From NCBI GenBank assembly GCA_963559365.1, contig CAUWKC010000001.1, positions 57,459-121,458 of the forward strand: DNA of 64,000 nucleotides. Direction: 5' to 3'. The stretch comes from an uncultured Clostridia bacterium. GTDB lineage: Bacteria > Bacillota > Clostridia > TANB77 > CAG-508. Positions 57,386 through 62,481 of the stretch are shown in pieces; position 1 is the stretch's first letter, and each line of letters starts with the position of its first letter. The notes beneath the pieces are model-generated. The model worked only from the letters and a program-made list of their open reading frames with translations. It did no database searches and was not told the origin of the DNA. Position numbers and translations under genes: made by a program.

Positions 57386-57622
57386 TTAATTTTTATGTGC
57401 ATTATATTTTTCATCTGAAAAACCAGCAAGCCAACAAGGAGATACTCCAAAATAATTAGCTAATTTAGCAATTCCTGATGGTCCAATTTTTGTGATTTTG
57501 CCATTAGCATATTTAGAAATGGTACTTTTAGCTCCAAAACCTAGTTCTTCTGCCAAAACTTCATAAGGTGTATTTGAATTTTTTATTAATTCGTGAATTC
57601 TTTGCTTAAAAATATCGTCCAA
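57386..57622 (-). CDS. XRE-family HTH transcriptional regulator (CI/SinR-like); probable TTG start at 57622 after AGGGGG
   Basis: HTH ..STISKYANGK..LAKLANYFGVSPCWLAG. Confidence 0.6.
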   Translation of the reverse strand: MDDIFKQRIHELIKNSNTPYEVLAEELGFGAKSTISKYANGKITKIGPSGIAKLANYFGVSPCWLAGFSDEKYNAHKN

Positions 57623-57727
57623 TTTAGTTTTCCCCCTCAGCATTTATTAACAAAATTATAACATGTCATATTTTATTTGTAAACACTAAACTTAAACAAA
57701 CTGAAATTTAAAATTAATAACAATCTA

Positions 57728-57773
57728 TTGACAAAGAAAGAAAAATAATATATTATGTTTCCTAACAGGAAAC
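57728..57773 (+). promoter_or_regulatory. promoter TTGACA-17-TATTAT followed directly by perfect palindrome GTTTCCT-AAC-AGGAAAC (candidate operator) in the divergent intergenic region
   Basis: Sequence. Confidence 0.5.
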
Positions 57774-57796
57774 GAAAATATGAAAGGAAGATAAAA

Positions 57797-58027
57797 ATGG
57801 AACCAGAAGTAGTAGGAAAAAGAGTAAAAGACTTAATGAAAAAACAAAAAATAACAAGCGAAAAATTAGCAAAATCAATGGGAATAGATAAAAAAGATTT
57901 ATTAATAAAATTAGAAGGAAAAGAAGAATTCTATTTAAACGAAATGATAAAACTAAAGGAAATCTTTAAGCTAGATGAAAAAGGTTGTAATGATTTATTT
58001 TTCCGTAAAACAACAGAAGTCATATAA
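57797..58027 (+). CDS. small XRE/Cro-like HTH regulator (76 aa)
   Basis: RBS GAAAGGAAG; HTH ITSEKLAKSMGIDKKDL. Confidence 0.5.
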   Translation: MEPEVVGKRVKDLMKKQKITSEKLAKSMGIDKKDLLIKLEGKEEFYLNEMIKLKEIFKLDEKGCNDLFFRKTTEVI

Positions 58028-59467: not shown

Positions 59468-60426
59468 TGGTAGAAATGACAGATAATACAATGTTATCAA
59501 ATGGAATTATGATAGACAATAAATTTTTCCCTAAAAAAAATCTACAATCTGGAACATTAAGAATTGTTTTAACAACTCAATGTAATTACAAATGCAAATA
59601 TTGTTTTGCAGAAGGGGAAGAAAATAAAGAAATTAGAATTTTACCAATCGAAAAATTAAAATTAGTATTAAAAACAGCTAAAGAATTTGGAATTAACAAA
59701 ATAAAATTAACAGGAGGAGAACCTCTATTATATCCAAAAATGGAAGAATTACTAGAATATATTAGAGAAATTAATATAGATTATGTAGATTTAACTACAA
59801 ATATTTCATTATTAACACAAAAAAATATAGAATTACTAAATCGTTATCAAGTTAATGCATTAACATTAAGTTTAAATACTTTAAATCGTAAAAAATATGA
59901 ATACCTAAGTGGATTTTCAAATTTTGACTTAGTAAAAGAAAATTTAGAGAGAACAATACAAAAATTTAAAGGAAAAATTAGAATTAATTGTATTATATTT
60001 GATGAAAAATATGACGAAAAAGACTATCAATCTATAATAAATTTATGTCAAGAAAAAAATTTAGGAATGAGACTAATTGAGCCATCAGTTGTAAAAGGAT
60101 TTCCTATCACATATACAAAAGAAAAATTCGAAAAATTCACCAATAAATTAAGAAAAAAAGCAGATAAAGTTATAGAATCAGACTGTAACTCAGTTGAATA
60201 TTTGTTTTTTGGAAATTGGTATTTAACCATTATGCACAGTCTATGTGATAATAAAATTTGTGAAGCTTGCCCTAAATATATGTATATACGAGTAACATCA
60301 GATTTAAAATTAAAACCATGCTTATCTCGAAGAGACACAGAAGTTCCAATTAATTTCGAAAACGAAAAAGAAATGGAAAAATCATTTATAAAAGCCATTA
60401 ATTATATGGGAGTAGGAATTAAATAG
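59467..60426 (+). CDS. radical SAM protein, MoaA-like (GTP 3',8-cyclase family fold with C-terminal Cys cluster)
   Basis: LRIVLTTQCNYKCKYC, KLTGGEPLL, C-terminal CxxC..LKLKPCL. Confidence 0.7.
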   Translation: MVEMTDNTMLSNGIMIDNKFFPKKNLQSGTLRIVLTTQCNYKCKYCFAEGEENKEIRILPIEKLKLVLKTAKEFGINKIKLTGGEPLLYPKMEELLEYIREINIDYVDLTTNISLLTQKNIELLNRYQVNALTLSLNTLNRKKYEYLSGFSNFDLVKENLERTIQKFKGKIRINCIIFDEKYDEKDYQSIINLCQEKNLGMRLIEPSVVKGFPITYTKEKFEKFTNKLRKKADKVIESDCNSVEYLFFGNWYLTIMHSLCDNKICEACPKYMYIRVTSDLKLKPCLSRRDTEVPINFENEKEMEKSFIKAINYMGVGIK

Positions 60427-61068
60427 ATGAAAATGTCAAAAAAACAAGGGTTAGAAATGTTACAGATTTTAGATTTTCCCACAATAGAATTAATAGACCC
60501 TAATTTATTAGACGAAAATAGTAGTGTATTAAAACAAGGACTAAGTGTAAGAACTTCACCAAAGACAGATAAAGAAAATAATGTGTATTTACCATCTATC
60601 CATAACTGCAAAAATTTATCAGAAATCAGAGAATTTATCAAAAAAAATCAAAGCCAATACAATATTCTTGTCCATAGAACATTAAAAACTGAACAGATAG
60701 GTTCTATATCAAGATATGTAGGAGAACAAGATAAAGTAATAATTGAAATTTTTCAAGACTTTGAAAAAAGAAAAGAAGGAATAATAAAAAATAGAGCAAT
60801 TGTACCAATTATGGGAGAAAAATTTCGAATTGACCAGTTAGAATTAAAAGAAAAAAATGCAGAAGAATATAAAGTTTTTAGTGAAGTAATAAGAGATGTA
60901 AAATATATGCCATTTCAAAAATTTGATGCTGAATTTGTAGTAGAAAAGGGAAAAATAGTTTTTACAGATTTAACAATACTAGAAAGAAAAGACCAAAAAT
61001 ATGCAGAAGAATTGCGAAAACAAACACAAGAAAAAAAGAAAGAAAGAAGTGAAGAAATAGAAAAGTAG
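60427..61068 (+). CDS. hypothetical protein (213 aa) translationally coupled to the radical SAM genes
   Basis: Start overlaps the upstream stop (TAGATG). Confidence 0.45.
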   Translation: MKMSKKQGLEMLQILDFPTIELIDPNLLDENSSVLKQGLSVRTSPKTDKENNVYLPSIHNCKNLSEIREFIKKNQSQYNILVHRTLKTEQIGSISRYVGEQDKVIIEIFQDFEKRKEGIIKNRAIVPIMGEKFRIDQLELKEKNAEEYKVFSEVIRDVKYMPFQKFDAEFVVEKGKIVFTDLTILERKDQKYAEELRKQTQEKKKERSEEIEK

Positions 61069-61086
61069 AAAAAGGAGAAGAAAAAA

Positions 61087-62481
61087 ATGAAATTATCAAA
61101 AGCGGGAATCAAAACATCAAGAATCAAAGAAGTGGATCCTAGTTATCCAGCACAAGATATCTTATTACAAAGTGGACAATTATCACAATTCGGAAGTGGA
61201 ATTTATGGTTATAACAACATACCATTAAAAGTAAAACAAAAAATTGAACAAGTCATTAGAGAGGAACTAGAAAAGAAAGATTGTATTGAAGTAGAAATGC
61301 CAACACTACAACCAAGAGATATATGGGAAGAATCTGGAAGATGGAAAAGGTATACAGAAGAAGGAACAATGCTTACTGTAAAATCTAAAAAAGGAGAATA
61401 TGGACTAGCACCAACAGCGGAAGAAGCAATAGTTGACTTTTCAAGAGATCAAATTGCATCTCATAAAAAATTACCAGTAATTTATTATCAAATAGGAGAA
61501 AAATATAGAGATGAAATCAGAAACAGAGGATGTCTTTTAAGAGGAAAAAACTTTCTTATGATGGATGCATACAGTTTTGACAAATCTGAAGAAGATTTAC
61601 AAAAATCTTATGATGTTATAAAAGATGCATATTTAAAAATATTTGAAAAATTAGGACTAGAAGCAATGCCAGTAGCAGCAGAAAGTGGAGCAATAGGAGG
61701 AGATAAATCAGAAGAATTTATGGTATTATCTGATATTGGAGAAGACACAGTTTTAGTAGATGAAGCAGGAAAAAAAGGTTTTAATGTAGAAGTCTTAGAA
61801 AGAGAAAATTATGAAGAACATTTAAAAAATGAATATGACATAGAAGATACTAAAGGTTTAAAAAGCAAAAAGGCTATAGAATTGGGGCATATTTTCCAAT
61901 TAGGAACCAAATATTCTGAACCAATGAAGGCAAATTACATAAATGAAAAAGGAAAAGAAGCACCTTATTATATGGGATGCTATGGAATTGGAGTAAGTAG
62001 AACCTTAGCTACTATCTATGAAAAAAGTTTAATAAGAGATGAAAAAGAAAATGTTGGAATTGCATTACCAGCCAATATTGCTCCTTATTTAATACAAATT
62101 ATTGCAAAAGGAGAAGAAAAAGAAAAAAGAGCAGAAGCCCTATATGAAGTATTAAAAGATCATGGAATAGAAAGTGTATTAGATGATAGAGAAGATGGAA
62201 GCATTGGAAGCAAAATACGTGATTGTCAAATACTAGGAACACCTTATATCGGAATTATGGGAAATAAAACAAAAGATAATGAAATAGAGGTGCAATCTTC
62301 TGCAACTGGAGAAAAAAGGATTATGAAAGTAGCAGAATTAATGATAGCTTTACAAAAATTAGAAAAAGAAATACAAAATAATCCAAAAGCAAGATTGGAA
62401 GACTTTTGGGATTTAAATAAAGAAGAAAAAAGTCTACCAAGAAAAAGCAAAAATATAGAAATAGAAGGAGACGAGAGATAA
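61087..62481 (+). CDS. proS: proline--tRNA ligase, bacterial-type core lacking the INS editing domain
   Basis: Class II motifs: SGIYGY..P, FLMMDAYSF, GCYGIGVSR; anticodon-binding domain; only about 110 aa between motifs 2 and 3. Confidence 0.75.
   Translation: MKLSKAGIKTSRIKEVDPSYPAQDILLQSGQLSQFGSGIYGYNNIPLKVKQKIEQVIREELEKKDCIEVEMPTLQPRDIWEESGRWKRYTEEGTMLTVKSKKGEYGLAPTAEEAIVDFSRDQIASHKKLPVIYYQIGEKYRDEIRNRGCLLRGKNFLMMDAYSFDKSEEDLQKSYDVIKDAYLKIFEKLGLEAMPVAAESGAIGGDKSEEFMVLSDIGEDTVLVDEAGKKGFNVEVLERENYEEHLKNEYDIEDTKGLKSKKAIELGHIFQLGTKYSEPMKANYINEKGKEAPYYMGCYGIGVSRTLATIYEKSLIRDEKENVGIALPANIAPYLIQIIAKGEEKEKRAEALYEVLKDHGIESVLDDREDGSIGSKIRDCQILGTPYIGIMGNKTKDNEIEVQSSATGEKRIMKVAELMIALQKLEKEIQNNPKARLEDFWDLNKEEKSLPRKSKNIEIEGDER

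Follow-up and report, generated by a model that had tools for sequence, protein, structure and literature searches.

Background

In the albomycin pathway, the radical SAM enzyme AbmM acts on a nucleoside, and the cluster encodes AbmK, a resistant copy of SerRS. In the nikkomycin/polyoxin pathways, a radical SAM enzyme (NikJ/PolH) acts on a nucleotide, together with a phosphatase (NikL/PolJ) and an ATP-grasp ligase (NikS/PolG). The pyl operon encodes a radical SAM enzyme (PylB), an ATP-grasp enzyme (PylC), PylD, a class II aminoacyl-tRNA synthetase (aaRS; PylS), and a tRNA (pylT). In tiarin/trifolitoxin-like biosynthetic gene clusters (BGCs), the enrichment of aaRS genes next to the clusters served to predict the target, the encoded copies conferred immunity, and some members of the family are without an aaRS gene; the clusters with aaRS immunity also include those of mupirocin, agrocin 84, and vibriomycins, and aaRS-guided mining has been reviewed. 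No bacterial pathway with an immunity gene for prolyl-tRNA synthetase (ProRS) is described in these reviews and papers. In Bacillus thuringiensis, a P-type ProRS1 and an E-type ProRS2 are present, and tolerance of natural inhibitors of ProRS has been suggested as a role.

Here, we analysed an operon of an uncultured gut Clostridia bacterium, the raw sequence of which contains five tightly coupled genes (for a Nudix hydrolase, two radical SAM enzymes termed rSAM-A and rSAM-B, an ATP-grasp protein, and a ProRS) and a divergent pair of HTH genes. We interpret the region as an accessory operon that is complete in itself and moves horizontally, and not as a Moco gene beside a housekeeping proS. It probably encodes an uncharacterised small-molecule pathway, the product of which, as we infer, is directed at ProRS.

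As in the albomycin cluster, the product of which is an aaRS inhibitor, a presumably extra aaRS gene lies inside the cassette, and AbmM (8WM2) is among the fold matches of rSAM-B; however, albomycin has an actinomycete host, a much larger cluster with a siderophore part, and SerRS as the target, and, apart from the radical SAM core, the cassette genes showed no sequence orthology to those for albomycin. The cassette has the same trio of enzyme types as the nikkomycin/polyoxin pathways (putative nucleotide radical SAM enzyme, phosphohydrolase, and ATP-grasp protein), which is a likeness of enzyme classes only, whereas its ATP-grasp protein is half the usual size and has the ATP-binding domain of a phosphotransferase as the nearest fold. 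In the clusters with aaRS immunity, the aaRS gene lies beside the BGC and is absent from some members, as is the case with the cassette ProRS, but these pathways (RiPP, PKS, or nucleotide-conjugate) use other enzymes and have no such radical SAM pair. The cassette co-encodes radical SAM, ATP-grasp, and class II aaRS proteins like the pyl operon; unlike that operon, the cassette loci are without a dedicated tRNA or a PylD-like dehydrogenase, and the family score of the aaRS marks it as a genuine ProRS. As for B. thuringiensis, the likeness is that of two ProRS architectures in one Firmicute (compare the copies 2 kb apart in L093), whereas the extra copy of B. thuringiensis is of E-type, constitutively expressed, and without a reported BGC link, and that of the cassette is of P-type without the INS editing domain and lies within a repressor-controlled operon.

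The locus and its transcription unit

The window is the whole stretch of DNA that was analysed (64 kb), and all positions refer to it. The span treated as the cassette is 57386-62492. The following features were assigned.

57245..57271, plus strand: intrinsic terminator of clpC (terminator-like hairpin, then a T-run), upstream boundary of the cassette
57386..57643, minus strand: HTH(-), XRE/Cro-C1-type HTH regulator, divergent from the operon (Pfam HTH_19 and HTH_3)
57655..57683, minus strand: promoter of the HTH(-) gene, TTTACA-17-TG-TATAAT (11/12 match, extended -10)
57728..57756, plus strand: operon promoter, TTGACA(57728)-17-TATTAT(57756) (11/12 match)
57757..57773, no strand: palindromic operator GTTTCCTAACAGGAAAC (7-bp arms, 3-nt loop), abutting the -10 box and over the expected transcription start
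57797..58027, plus strand: HTH(+), second small HTH protein, first operon gene, 76 aa (weak HTH_19 and HTH_26 matches)
58126..58566, plus strand: Nudix hydrolase, MutT-like, 146 aa (PF00293, 67 bits)
58568..59467, plus strand: rSAM-A, radical SAM enzyme, 299 aa (PF04055, Fer4_12, and a sub-threshold SPASM match at 246-284)
59467..60426, plus strand: rSAM-B, 319 aa, radical SAM enzyme of the MoaA fold that carries an auxiliary-cluster motif; not orthologous MoaA
60427..61068, plus strand: orphan minimal ATP-grasp protein, 213 aa (AF2 fold and Foldseek)
61087..62481, plus strand: P-type ProRS paralog, 464 aa, facultative last operon gene (TIGR00409, 413.9 bits vs cut-off 306.7)
62469..62492, plus strand: hairpin AGACGAGA-GATAACAA-TCTCGTCT then TTTTT, likely operon terminator (read from the sequence; overlaps the ProRS stop)

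The ORFs, junctions, divergent HTH pair, promoter, and palindrome of the initial annotation were all found in the raw sequence where it had placed them. The stop codon TAA of the Nudix gene is followed, after 1 base, by the ATG of rSAM-A (58566/58568); rSAM-A and rSAM-B overlap at TAATG (59467); rSAM-B and the ATP-grasp gene adjoin with a 0-nt gap (TAGATG, 60426/60427); and the ProRS ATG at 61087 is preceded by an 18-nt gap with AAAGGAG. The terminator scan found no plus-strand terminator-like site between the clpC terminator at 57245-57265 and the hairpin at 62469-62492, which fits a single transcription unit; the scan flags the stem at 62469-62492 on the minus strand. Co-transcription from the Nudix gene to the ProRS gene under the divergent XRE pair and the palindromic operator, as originally proposed, is thus supported by the junctions, one promoter, and one terminator. 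The ORF list contains no precursor-peptide-like small ORF within the operon.

The ORF of HTH(-) encodes 85 aa vs 78 aa in public gene calls, the latter being probably the true length. HTH(-) matches phage repressor families (phrog_8), its orthologs (61-68% identical) occupy the same position in relatives, and the block ATTATAACATTT...TTTGTAAA at its promoter is conserved among relatives. As for HTH(+), the gene begins at the ATG at 57797 (MEPE..., with an RBS before it), as in all relatives and public gene calls; the start at 57755 in the ORF list was rejected as too far upstream. The palindrome, therefore, lies in the leader and outside the coding sequence. Because promoter-like sites in the region are no commoner than in shuffled sequences (31 vs 32.1), a consensus match alone is weak promoter evidence. 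The main and real support for the promoter and the palindrome is their conservation at the same position in nine relatives (the palindrome in L005, L008-L011, L013-L015, and L019), in which TTGACA and TAT(T/C/A)AT are retained and the consensus is GTTTCCTAAYAGGAAAC. The two small XRE-type HTH proteins would control the sigma-70 promoter via this conserved palindrome over the transcription start.

The radical SAM pair

The rSAM-A and rSAM-B genes are always adjacent in the cassette loci examined. Invariant residues of rSAM-A are C36/C40/C43 together with C29, C160, and C245; the C-terminus is His-rich, and the C-terminal part is cluster-poor and SPASM-like. No NCBIfam family attains its cut-off with rSAM-A, the N-terminal two thirds of which resemble peptide-modifying SPASM enzymes in the NCBIfam profiles. 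Judging from these resemblances, a non-nucleotide substrate is possible for rSAM-A.

The best NCBIfam matches of rSAM-B are MoaA models over the full length, yet all are below the family cut-offs (157.5 bits vs 325 for moaA_archaeal, and 152 vs 231 and 126 vs 284 for the others), and Pfam gives no match to the Mob_synth_C domain. The top structural match of the AF2 model (pLDDT 85) is S. aureus MoaA (1TV7/1TV8/2FB2; full-length fold, TM 0.71), followed by viperins and by two enzymes from nucleoside-antibiotic pathways, AbmM and BlsE. Like MoaA, rSAM-B has the N-terminal CX3CX2C and three C-terminal cysteines (C265/C268/C285), which align with the auxiliary-cluster cysteines of MoaA and are followed by the 'RVT...LKPCL' segment and a Gly-rich tail; the CxxC..KLKPCL motif reported initially is real, and the description of this protein as MoaA-like in fold and cluster motif stands. 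Of the three arginines that bind GTP, rSAM-B retains two (equivalents of MoaA R17 and R268). Unlike MoaA, rSAM-B has lost the R266 position, with the CNR of MoaA replaced by C-x-x-YMY through the inserted YMY, and features an additional invariant cysteine, Cys260, along with an invariant N-terminal extension of 30 aa that is unique to it. It also differs from MoaA in its occurrence: it never adjoins Moco genes, rSAM-A always accompanies it, and its orthologs (49-86% identity) turned up in just 13 species among the species-level genomes scanned; the next matches have <=35% identity and are mostly archaeal MoaA. One public source calls an ortholog 'cyclic pyranopterin phosphate synthase'.

On its sequence, rSAM-B is assigned as a MoaA-fold enzyme and not as an orthologous MoaA. 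The profile comparison that had been suggested between MoaA and viperin favoured the MoaA models but, with the scores under the cut-offs, supported neither orthologous MoaA nor viperin (the two radical SAM proteins score 72 and 74 bits vs the curated viperin cut-off of 180). No moa genes elsewhere and no second MoaA-like gene were found within the window, and moaC, moaB, moeA, and mobA were absent from the Pfam-annotated cassette neighbourhoods, in agreement with the early remark that a Moco context is missing.

The Nudix hydrolase and the ATP-grasp protein

The Nudix box GHVEANEEIRKALAREAKEEIGI is intact, starting from residue 41, and the protein is below every NCBIfam equivalog cut-off. The gene was found in most Clostridial versions of the cassette. 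The fourth gene, first listed as hypothetical, encodes instead an orphan minimal ATP-grasp fold: the 213-aa protein gave no match in the Pfam, NCBIfam, and PADLOC searches, and its family has only 37 representatives in 1.84 billion proteins, whereas its AF2 model (pLDDT 89.6), which carries invariant polar residues, was matched by Foldseek to the ATP-binding domain of rifampin phosphotransferase (the nearest fold), PurK, Ddl, and ACD-beta, with modest scores (TM 0.45-0.57) and without HMM support. With this fold, the likely chemistry shifts to ATP-dependent ligation or phosphorylation, and, as modelled, the protein may be a kinase rather than a ligase.

Distribution of the cassette and the ProRS gene

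The cassette was found after clpC, beside a DDE transposase, near a serine recombinase, near a relaxase fragment, and in other contexts (L012). It lies at one fixed locus, outside any recognisable defence island, in eight species-level genomes, and no copy was found in IMG/VR, phage records, or plasmids. The initial proposal of an uncharacterised, mobile cassette plausibly acting on nucleotides is supported.

The ProRS aligns to residues 23-270 and 404-573 of P. aeruginosa ProRS, skipping the INS editing domain; the class II motifs are intact, the catalytic and anticodon-binding domains are kept, and the C-terminal extension ends with the NPxxxLED(F/Y) tail common to other BGC-linked copies. 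It adjoins the cassette in 7 of the 12 informative species genomes, in addition to the window and L001, and half of the closest relatives have no trace of it, the operon there having a terminator of its own directly behind the ATP-grasp gene. In unrelated genomes, the ProRS gene may close the cassette (3' end), open it (5' end), lie beyond an IS element, or face the other way, and it thus accompanies the radical SAM pair in four different positions or orientations; it stands first in L098/L099 and in L095, and in L018 the ProRS next to the radical SAM genes is an ordinary one that contains INS. By equal length of the longest contig, at least 22 ProRS homologs putatively share a contig with cassette proteins, and this matching was validated directly for P0280.

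The ProRS does not look housekeeping; it belongs to the cassette as an optional component. The initial annotation had taken it for a housekeeping proS next to which the cassette was inserted; the cleanly ProRS-less relatives and the permuted positions indicate that the ProRS itself is cassette cargo. The earlier interpretation is supported in part, and the observation behind it is confirmed.

Members of this ProRS clade, with 58-63% identity and the C-terminal tail in common, also head a second operon (rSAM/B12-rSAM/kinase-phosphatase) and flank an NRPS-PKS cluster, and so the clade is linked statistically and positionally to this and two other biosynthetic cassettes. In the NRPS-PKS case (L093), this P-type copy and an E-type ProRS are on one contig, 2 kb apart. 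A sister clade of P-type, INS-less ProRS (430-443 aa) has housekeeping-looking contexts and the same catalytic-motif variants, and the comparison with it revealed no sequence signature of 'resistance' in the cassette ProRS. The 64-kb window contains no second ProRS.

Possible function

Taking the gene content, co-transcription signals, operator conservation, folds and motifs, and mobility as demonstrated, we favour, tentatively, a mobile mini biosynthetic cluster that makes a modified nucleotide-type metabolite and carries the ProRS copy for self-immunity; the nucleotide substrate, the step order, the ProRS-directed product, the immunity role, and every chemical step are what we infer. Because of its MoaA fold and open auxiliary-cluster site, rSAM-B probably binds a purine nucleoside triphosphate, on which it would perform a radical transformation. 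As the invariant, translationally coupled partner, rSAM-A would perform a second radical step; the Nudix hydrolase would remove pyrophosphate from a nucleotide intermediate or product; and the minimal ATP-grasp protein would spend ATP either on phosphorylation of the scaffold or on joining a carboxylate, possibly proline, to it. The P-type ProRS, predicted to be catalytically intact and without the editing domain, would be the immunity determinant of the producer, a drug-insensitive target copy with which the charging of tRNA-Pro would continue as the product inhibits the ProRS of competitors.

The ProRS may instead be a biosynthetic component that converts proline, or an imino acid supplied by the radical SAM enzymes, into an activated adenylate or tRNA ester, so that the product would be an aminoacyl-nucleotide or a tRNA-dependent natural product, in formal analogy to PylB/PylC/PylS. 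This is unlikely: the shared transcription unit of radical SAM, ATP-grasp, and class II aaRS genes, the intact catalytic and anticodon-binding domains without the domain by which non-proline products would be edited out, and the C-terminal extension specific to BGC-linked copies fit it, but there is no dedicated tRNA gene in 19 cassette loci, Pfam and NCBIfam revealed no transferase of the tRNA-dependent kind (CDPS, Fem, PEARL-like), intact operons without ProRS exist, the L018 radical SAM genes accompany the ordinary enzyme, and the same clade accompanies an NRPS-PKS with its own adenylation domains. It is rather improbable that the ProRS is a stress- or inhibitor-tolerant spare riding mobile DNA, with the radical SAM pair and the ATP-grasp protein unrelated to it (e.g., in cofactor or peptide maturation). 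The coexistence of P-type and E-type ProRS in Bacillus, with proposed roles in stress tolerance, the transposases and recombinases beside the clade, the ProRS-less operons, and the similarity of rSAM-A to SPASM peptide or cofactor maturases would agree with a loose linkage; against it are the tight coupling in the window (18-nt gap, no terminator), the first position in L098 and L095, an adjacency seen in at least five independent arrangements, and the missing precursor-peptide-like ORF, and chance adjacency of one gene, in most cases, to a cassette as rare as 13 species is very unlikely.

There is little support for a reading as viperin-like defence or as Moco synthesis. Prokaryotic viperins (pVips) share with the cassette the radical SAM core, a possible NTP substrate, and a mobile, patchy distribution. 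In an anti-phage system of this type, which we regard as a slim prospect, the radical SAM enzymes would turn NTPs into chain-terminating or toxic analogues upon infection, while the Nudix hydrolase would adjust the pools of nucleotides and the HTH pair, being CI/Cro-like, would serve as the switch. The PADLOC pVip models match rSAM-A over the full length, although weakly (100 bits), and about two thirds of rSAM-B (84 bits). In addition, PDC-S07, a candidate defence family, is matched by the Nudix protein, both HTH regulators are similar to repressors of phages, and viperins are structural neighbours of rSAM-B. The pVip label initially suggested is nevertheless not retained: both proteins are far under the viperin cut-off and differ from each other, one having an auxiliary cluster; rSAM-A is at least equally similar to NirJ, AhbD, and SPASM maturases; the partners are ProRS and ATP-grasp proteins and not a nucleotide kinase; the cassette is absent from the phage and plasmid collections searched and, in eight genomes, sits at its fixed locus and not in a defence island; and known defence systems do not explain the recurrent ProRS or a clade shared with an NRPS-PKS cluster. 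That rSAM-B is simply MoaA (GTP 3',8-cyclase) for Moco, followed by an ordinary proS, is already largely refuted and very improbable. The full-length MoaA matches, the fold and auxiliary-cluster motif, and the one public label speak for it, but the scores are about half of the curated cut-offs without Mob_synth_C, the GTP site has one of its three essential arginines replaced, the N-terminus is unique, the orthologs in just 13 species always come with rSAM-A, Moco genes are missing from the neighbourhoods and a second MoaA-like gene from the window, and the ProRS is dispensable in close relatives.

Against the self-immunity explanation, it would not be parsimonious that three chemically unrelated cassettes all yield ProRS inhibitors, and, because about half of the closest relatives have an intact operon without an adjacent ProRS, immunity via ProRS would not be obligatory, unless these relatives are protected in another way. 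In its favour, nucleotide chemistry would fit the MoaA match of rSAM-B with its kept cysteines and two arginines, the intact Nudix box, and the predicted ATP-grasp fold, and a target duplicate would fit the occurrence of the ProRS clade in other biosynthetic operons and the pair of P-type and E-type enzymes in L093.

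Gene organization and control region

The cassette follows ctsR-mcsA-mcsB-clpC and the clpC terminator, and its features, in window positions, are listed below.

Features of the cassette
57245-57265, clpC terminator, upstream of the cassette
57386-57643, minus strand, HTH(-), XRE-type regulator gene, downstream of clpC
58126-58566, plus strand, Nudix gene, second of the plus-strand genes, after the regulator gene HTH(+)
58568-59467, plus strand, rSAM-A, radical SAM gene
59467-60426, plus strand, rSAM-B, MoaA-fold radical SAM gene
60427-61068, plus strand, gene for a 213-aa protein (predicted ATP-grasp fold)
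61087-62481, plus strand, ProRS gene (464 aa), last gene in the window's version

Six genes are tightly packed on the plus strand, and the junctions assigned to them in the initial annotation were reproduced in full by the raw sequence: TAA-A-ATG, TAATG, TAGATG, and 18 nt with a ribosome-binding site before the ProRS gene. A scan of the plus strand gave no terminator-like site within the gene block, and the ProRS stop codon is overlapped by a hairpin that is followed by a T-run. The signals for co-transcription of the ProRS gene are the 18-nt gap, the lack of an intervening terminator, and the promoter in common with the biosynthetic genes.

The divergent control region between the two HTH genes spans 110-150 nt. 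The best promoter-like sites of the region in a scan were the operon promoter TTGACA-17-TATTAT (57728-57756) and the opposing promoter TTTACA-17-TG-TATAAT (57683->57655), each matching 11 of the 12 consensus positions; since promoter-like sites were no more numerous than in shuffled sequence, a consensus match alone is weak evidence. Nine relatives have the same -35 and -10 boxes, followed at equal distance by GTTTCCTAAYAGGAAAC, sometimes with 1-3 mismatches, and this comparative conservation is the stronger evidence for the predicted promoter and its palindrome. The start of HTH(+) was placed at ATG 57797 (MEPE..., 76 aa), not at 57755, on the basis of the relatives and public gene calls; therefore, the palindrome covers the expected transcription start, which is where a repressor operator classically lies. 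The two HTH proteins are similar to CI/Cro-type regulators of phages. Another AT-rich, near-perfect 18-nt palindrome (TAAAATGCAAATACATTT and AAATATATTTGCATTTTA, 5 nt apart; 57331-57371), just downstream of HTH(-), could be the terminator of HTH(-) or another binding site.

Distribution and genomic context

When one genome per species was scanned (185,579 species), rSAM-B orthologs (49-86% identity) were found in only 13 species, and nearly all of the carriers were metagenome-assembled genomes (MAGs) of uncultured gut Clostridia; the next matches had at most 35% identity and were mostly archaeal MoaA. Eight species-level relatives and the window's genome carry the cassette in the clpC-dxs interval. 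Only in the latter do ProRS and dxs have a further gene between them (62700-64000, continuing past the window end), whose 644-aa product has a prepilin-type N-terminus (MKMRKTNNRGITLIALIITIIVLLILAG) and then LRR_5 repeats; thus, the clpC-dxs interval behaves as a variable island. Among the other loci, the cassette adjoins a DDE transposase (L001-L004) or a relaxase fragment (L098/L099), lies 5 kb from a serine recombinase (L010), or has other neighbours altogether and another HTH regulator (L012). No relative was found in IMG/VR, and the matches in phage and plasmid records were no more than ordinary MoaA (at most 31% identity). With a G+C content of 27.2%, against 28.4% in the remainder of the window, the cassette is not marked as foreign by its composition. 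Direct or inverted repeats of the insertion-scar kind were not found on its flanks, the only notable direct repeats being the radical SAM motifs common to rSAM-A and rSAM-B.

The two radical SAM genes are the invariant core of all versions; the ATP-grasp gene is present in every version except L018, and the Nudix gene in most Clostridial ones. The metK gene in L016 was considered as a cassette member and then taken as an ordinary neighbour because it has its own SAM riboswitch. The most divergent version (L018:9039-13125), in a MAG labelled Alphaproteobacteria, has rSAM-A and rSAM-B at about 50% identity and, after this pair, a 633-aa ProRS that retains the editing domain (INS); it is without the ATP-grasp and Nudix genes.

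ProRS as part of the cassette

The window's ProRS, of the prokaryote-like P-type, scored 413.9 bits against TIGR00409 (cut-off, 306.7), has domains PF00587 and PF03129, and has intact motifs 2 and 3. Its alignment with ProRS of solved bacterial structures consists of two blocks that skip INS (residues ~271-403 in the Pseudomonas aeruginosa ProRS), and the INS model PF04073 gave no match to it, unlike to the L018 copy.

A ProRS gene adjoins the cassette in 7 of 12 informative species genomes (L008, L015-L020), as well as in the window and L001. It is the first cassette gene in L098/L099 versus the last in the window, lies upstream of the cassette with an IS element between them in L001, and is on the opposite strand in L017, where a 271-aa truncated copy stands beside the cassette (11760-12575) and a 424-aa copy 8.5 kb away. 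L005, L009, L011, L013 and L014 have a terminator and the dxs promoter immediately behind the ATP-grasp gene and no trace of a ProRS gene there, and L012 has neither the gene nor a remnant beside the cassette. As an essential single-copy gene could not vanish cleanly, these genomes would have to charge tRNA-Pro with another enzyme, and a housekeeping ProRS elsewhere is implied for the close relatives without a cassette copy; none other than the cassette copy was found within the 64-kb window. The initial annotation had regarded the gene as a housekeeping proS next to which the cassette was inserted. The permuted positions and the clean absence in close relatives make it a part of the cassette instead, and the neighbourhoods of the relatives show a facultative adjacency and a variable arrangement, not a fixed proS preceded by the cassette. 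The ProRS gene moves horizontally with the cassette, as seen from its presence and absence in relatives and from the transposase, recombinase and relaxase-fragment neighbours. At least 22 of the closest ProRS homologs match an rSAM-B or ATP-grasp homolog in the size of the longest contig, a matching confirmed directly for the homolog P0280.

The cassette-linked copies form clades apart from a clade of 430-443 aa, and the separation lies in the C-terminal tail only. No sequence feature that marks the window's ProRS as resistant was found; a candidate signature in the catalytic motifs, the motif-2 loop RxRGxLLRGKxF, is not diagnostic because the housekeeping-context clade has it as well. A T-box leader as a marker of housekeeping aaRS genes was uninformative, since no ProRS gene, including those in housekeeping contexts, was found to have one.

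The same ProRS clade in other cassettes

Two of the ProRS homologs, P0339 and P0299, lead an operon for a SPASM radical SAM protein, a B12-binding radical SAM protein, a phosphatase-kinase fusion, and a PTP-like phosphatase. This second operon type (L094:411-6086; L095 and L096:9001-15339) begins with the ProRS-like protein; the SPASM protein is of 430-440 aa with an N-terminal extension of ~90 aa, the B12-binding protein of ~490-500 aa, and the phosphatase-kinase a His_Phos_1/APH fusion, with a Y_phosphatase3 protein in L095/L096. Three large serine recombinases flank the operon in L095/L096. Two further homologs, P0326 and P0264, stand at the flank of a cluster of hybrid NRPS-PKS type (L090:8001-17377; L093:1-13693), which encodes IDH-like, PPTase, ADH, KASIII and ACP proteins and a megasynthase of 2100-2442 aa and adjoins an IS91-type transposase. 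The ProRS copies of these other cassettes are 58-63% identical to the window's and share with it a C-terminal extension with the motif NPxxxLED(F/Y), which is absent from the sister clade of 430-443 aa in housekeeping-looking contexts. The L093 contig carries both ProRS architectures: the P-type copy is 2 kb away from an E-type enzyme of 478 aa with a ProRS-C_1 domain (22% identity), whose gene follows Imp-YgjV; thus, the two types coexist in at least one genome.

The PTP-like phosphatase (Y_phosphatase3, ~230 aa, CNAGKDRTG motif, 48-64% identity) adjoins the window-type cassette in three loci and is also inside the L095-type operon, and is a second accessory gene common to both cassette types, although absent from the window.

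Positions of the PTP-like phosphatase gene
L008:13033-13743, minus strand
L011:11711-12394
L017:69-752
L095:14650-15339

Radical SAM, Nudix and ATP-grasp proteins

The MoaA equivalog models of NCBIfam match rSAM-B along the whole of each model, at about half their cut-offs (score/cut-off in bits: TIGR02668, 157.5/325.25; NF001199, 151.8/231; TIGR02666, 126.5/284.05). Mob_synth_C (PF06463) gave no match, and the only Pfam matches at E <= 0.01 were PF04055 and PF13353. The invariant cysteines are C39/C43/C46 (CX3CX2C) and C265/C268/C285, the latter aligning with the auxiliary-cluster cysteines of genuine bacterial and archaeal MoaA. With respect to the GTP-binding arginines of Staphylococcus aureus MoaA (R17, R266 and R268 in the numbering of the PDB 2FB2 title), rSAM-B has conserved equivalents of R17 and R268 in R32 and R275, and the position of R266 is occupied by K, D or E beside an inserted YMY, so that the CNR motif becomes C-x-x-YMY. 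In addition, rSAM-B has an invariant Cys260 and an invariant 30-residue N-terminal extension, and keeps the Gly-rich tail of MoaA. The top Foldseek matches of its model (pLDDT 85) were S. aureus MoaA (1TV7 and 2FB2; TM 0.70-0.72, 309 columns), followed by SuiB, viperins, and AbmM and BlsE, two enzymes of nucleoside-antibiotic pathways. None of moaC, moaB/mogA, moeA, mobA and moaD/E was found among the Pfam-annotated cassette neighbours examined, nor a further MoaA-like gene within the 64-kb window.

The viperin model NF038283 (viperin_w_prok; cut-off, 180 bits) gave 71.6 bits for rSAM-A and 73.9 bits for rSAM-B, and the pVip HMMs of PADLOC, which are models without a curated threshold, gave 100 and 84 bits, respectively. 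Hence, of what had been suggested for the radical SAM proteins from the sequence, the MoaA-like character of rSAM-B was borne out in fold and cluster cysteines, while it falls below the MoaA and viperin cut-offs, and the label "pVip-like" is not upheld, as both proteins are below the NF038283 cut-off. Conservation of rSAM-A is very strong, with 52-89% identity among all versions; the first two thirds of the protein are similar to NirJ, AhbD and SPASM maturases, and a SPASM-like segment without most of the cysteines makes up the C-terminus. The protein also has three additional invariant cysteines and a His-rich tail. The two genes share 76-78% nucleotide identity across the regions of the CX3CX2C and GGEP motifs (58664-58816 versus 59572-59727) and the proteins 28% identity over 168 residues, which is consistent with ancient paralogy inside one superfamily branch. 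The Nudix protein has an intact box GX5EX7REUXEEXGU (GHVEANEEIRKALAREAKEEIGI, from residue 41) and is MutT-like (PF00293, 67 bits), below every equivalog threshold.

The 213-aa protein had no match in Pfam, NCBIfam or PADLOC; a word-indexed database gave about 80 homologs, and a set of 1.84 billion proteins gave 37 representatives. Its model (pLDDT 89.6) matched 52 PDB chains at E <= 0.001 with Foldseek, and the best 50 of the 52 were all of ATP-grasp fold (query-normalised TM 0.39-0.57), with the ATP-binding domain of rifampin phosphotransferase, PurK, D-Ala-D-Ala ligase, and the beta subunit of ADP-forming acyl-CoA synthetase as best matches. The protein is thus predicted to be of ATP-grasp fold, assigned by fold alone, and is only about half as large as ATP-grasp ligases usually are. 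Its invariant residues by sequence conservation are polar and grouped in motifs (K46, D167, E169, D181 and N122 among them).

Possible function of the cassette

A duplicated essential gene that is co-transcribed with biosynthetic genes, mobile and common to different clusters is a recognised signature of self-resistance by a target copy, and we read the ProRS as a candidate for such a copy of the target of the cassette product. Gene content, coupling, folds, motifs and linkage are established by the analysis, whereas we infer a substrate, product, target and immunity role as follows. rSAM-B, as a MoaA-fold radical SAM enzyme with an open auxiliary-cluster site, would fit nucleotide-based chemistry, this site being the one that binds GTP in MoaA; rSAM-A would be a second radical SAM enzyme, the Nudix protein a pyrophosphohydrolase, and the ATP-grasp protein an ATP-dependent kinase or ligase. 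The product may be a modified nucleotide or an aminoacyl-nucleotide that inhibits ProRS, and the P-type copy would confer immunity. A ProRS-inhibiting nucleotide is proposed because many natural aaRS inhibitors are aminoacyl-adenylate mimics and because the enzyme set fits nucleotide chemistry. We hold this reading tentatively, at slightly short of an even chance; among its weak points are that half of the closest cassette carriers are without an adjacent ProRS and that the convergence of three unrelated cassettes on one target is surprising.

The other readings differ in what they make of the ProRS. It may be biosynthetic, in a pyl-like or otherwise tRNA-dependent manner, rather than an immunity protein, and we regard this as unlikely: a search with ARAGORN found no tRNA in 16 of the 19 cassette loci and only unrelated Thr, Asp and Phe tRNAs in the others, so that none has a dedicated tRNA, operons without ProRS exist, and L018 carries an ordinary INS-containing ProRS. 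A pyl-type cassette for genetic-code expansion has its dedicated tRNA beside the aaRS, whereas no tRNA was found near the present one. A particular form, which we consider much less probable still, is that the rSAM pair and the ATP-grasp protein make a non-canonical imino acid or an aminoacyl-nucleotide, which the editing-less ProRS activates and loads on tRNA-Pro or passes on as adenylate; if true, it would be a natural repressor-switched tRNA-dependent chemistry, or a conditional substitution at proline codons, without a dedicated tRNA. A viperin-type defence is rather improbable, as its HMM support is below threshold only and as it leaves the ProRS, and the sharing of its clade with the NRPS-PKS cluster, without rationale. 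We give similarly little weight to a spare ProRS riding freely beside an unrelated radical SAM function, against which the operonic coupling and the repeated, independent adjacency argue. A plain MoaA with a housekeeping proS is very improbable: rSAM-B passes two family tests, the cysteines of the two [4Fe-4S] sites and the overall fold, but fails four of the six (the cut-off, Mob_synth_C, the three arginines, and the Moco-gene neighbours). Should the ProRS not confer immunity, its recurrent linkage would remain to be explained.

Novelty and implications

No curated family, defence model or paper describing the cassette was found, and the literature search gave no paper that links radical SAM and ProRS to self-resistance, or radical SAM and ATP-grasp to a nucleoside antibiotic and a tRNA synthetase. 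Biosynthetic clusters with a target-duplicate aaRS are known as a concept, as are the enzyme superfamilies; the gene combination, the two radical SAM subfamilies, the orphan ATP-grasp family, and a ProRS clade that travels with several gut-Clostridia cassettes appear to be new. The cassette is a lead that lends itself to direct testing. Provided that the immunity reading holds, it is a compact and tractable five-gene entry to an undescribed class of gut-microbial metabolites with the predicted target, ProRS, attached. The more valuable lead is the occurrence of one clade of editing-less P-type ProRS, with a common C-terminal tail, in three unrelated biosynthetic cassettes of gut Clostridia, sometimes joined by the PTP-like phosphatase and once beside an E-type ProRS. 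Since many Clostridia, Bacteroidota and the host use the E-type, the P-type copy could be intrinsically insensitive to an E-type-selective inhibitor, in which case the cassettes would be candidates for inter-bacterial or host-directed translation inhibitors; halofuginone is an example of a selective inhibitor, of the eukaryotic ProRS enzymes. For enzymology, the cassette offers a MoaA-fold radical SAM protein with an altered base-binding motif, a second radical SAM subfamily, and a half-size ATP-grasp family.

Other observations on the ProRS loci

Irregular genes in several loci point to decay or to errors of assembly: L019 has its ATP-grasp gene in two ORFs (10956-11628), the ProRS of L002 and L003 (3100-4500) is truncated (390 aa) or broken up, and L017 has the truncated copy. 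In L087-L089 (3974-7314), a P-type, INS-less ProRS of 437 aa, 61% identical to the window's, follows a gene for a 584-aa Imp-YgjV/radical-SAM fusion in a housekeeping-looking context (glyA, transketolase, ftsEX). The E-type ProRS in L093 also has YgjV next to it, which hints that the P-type replaced the E-type ProRS at the YgjV locus in some species.
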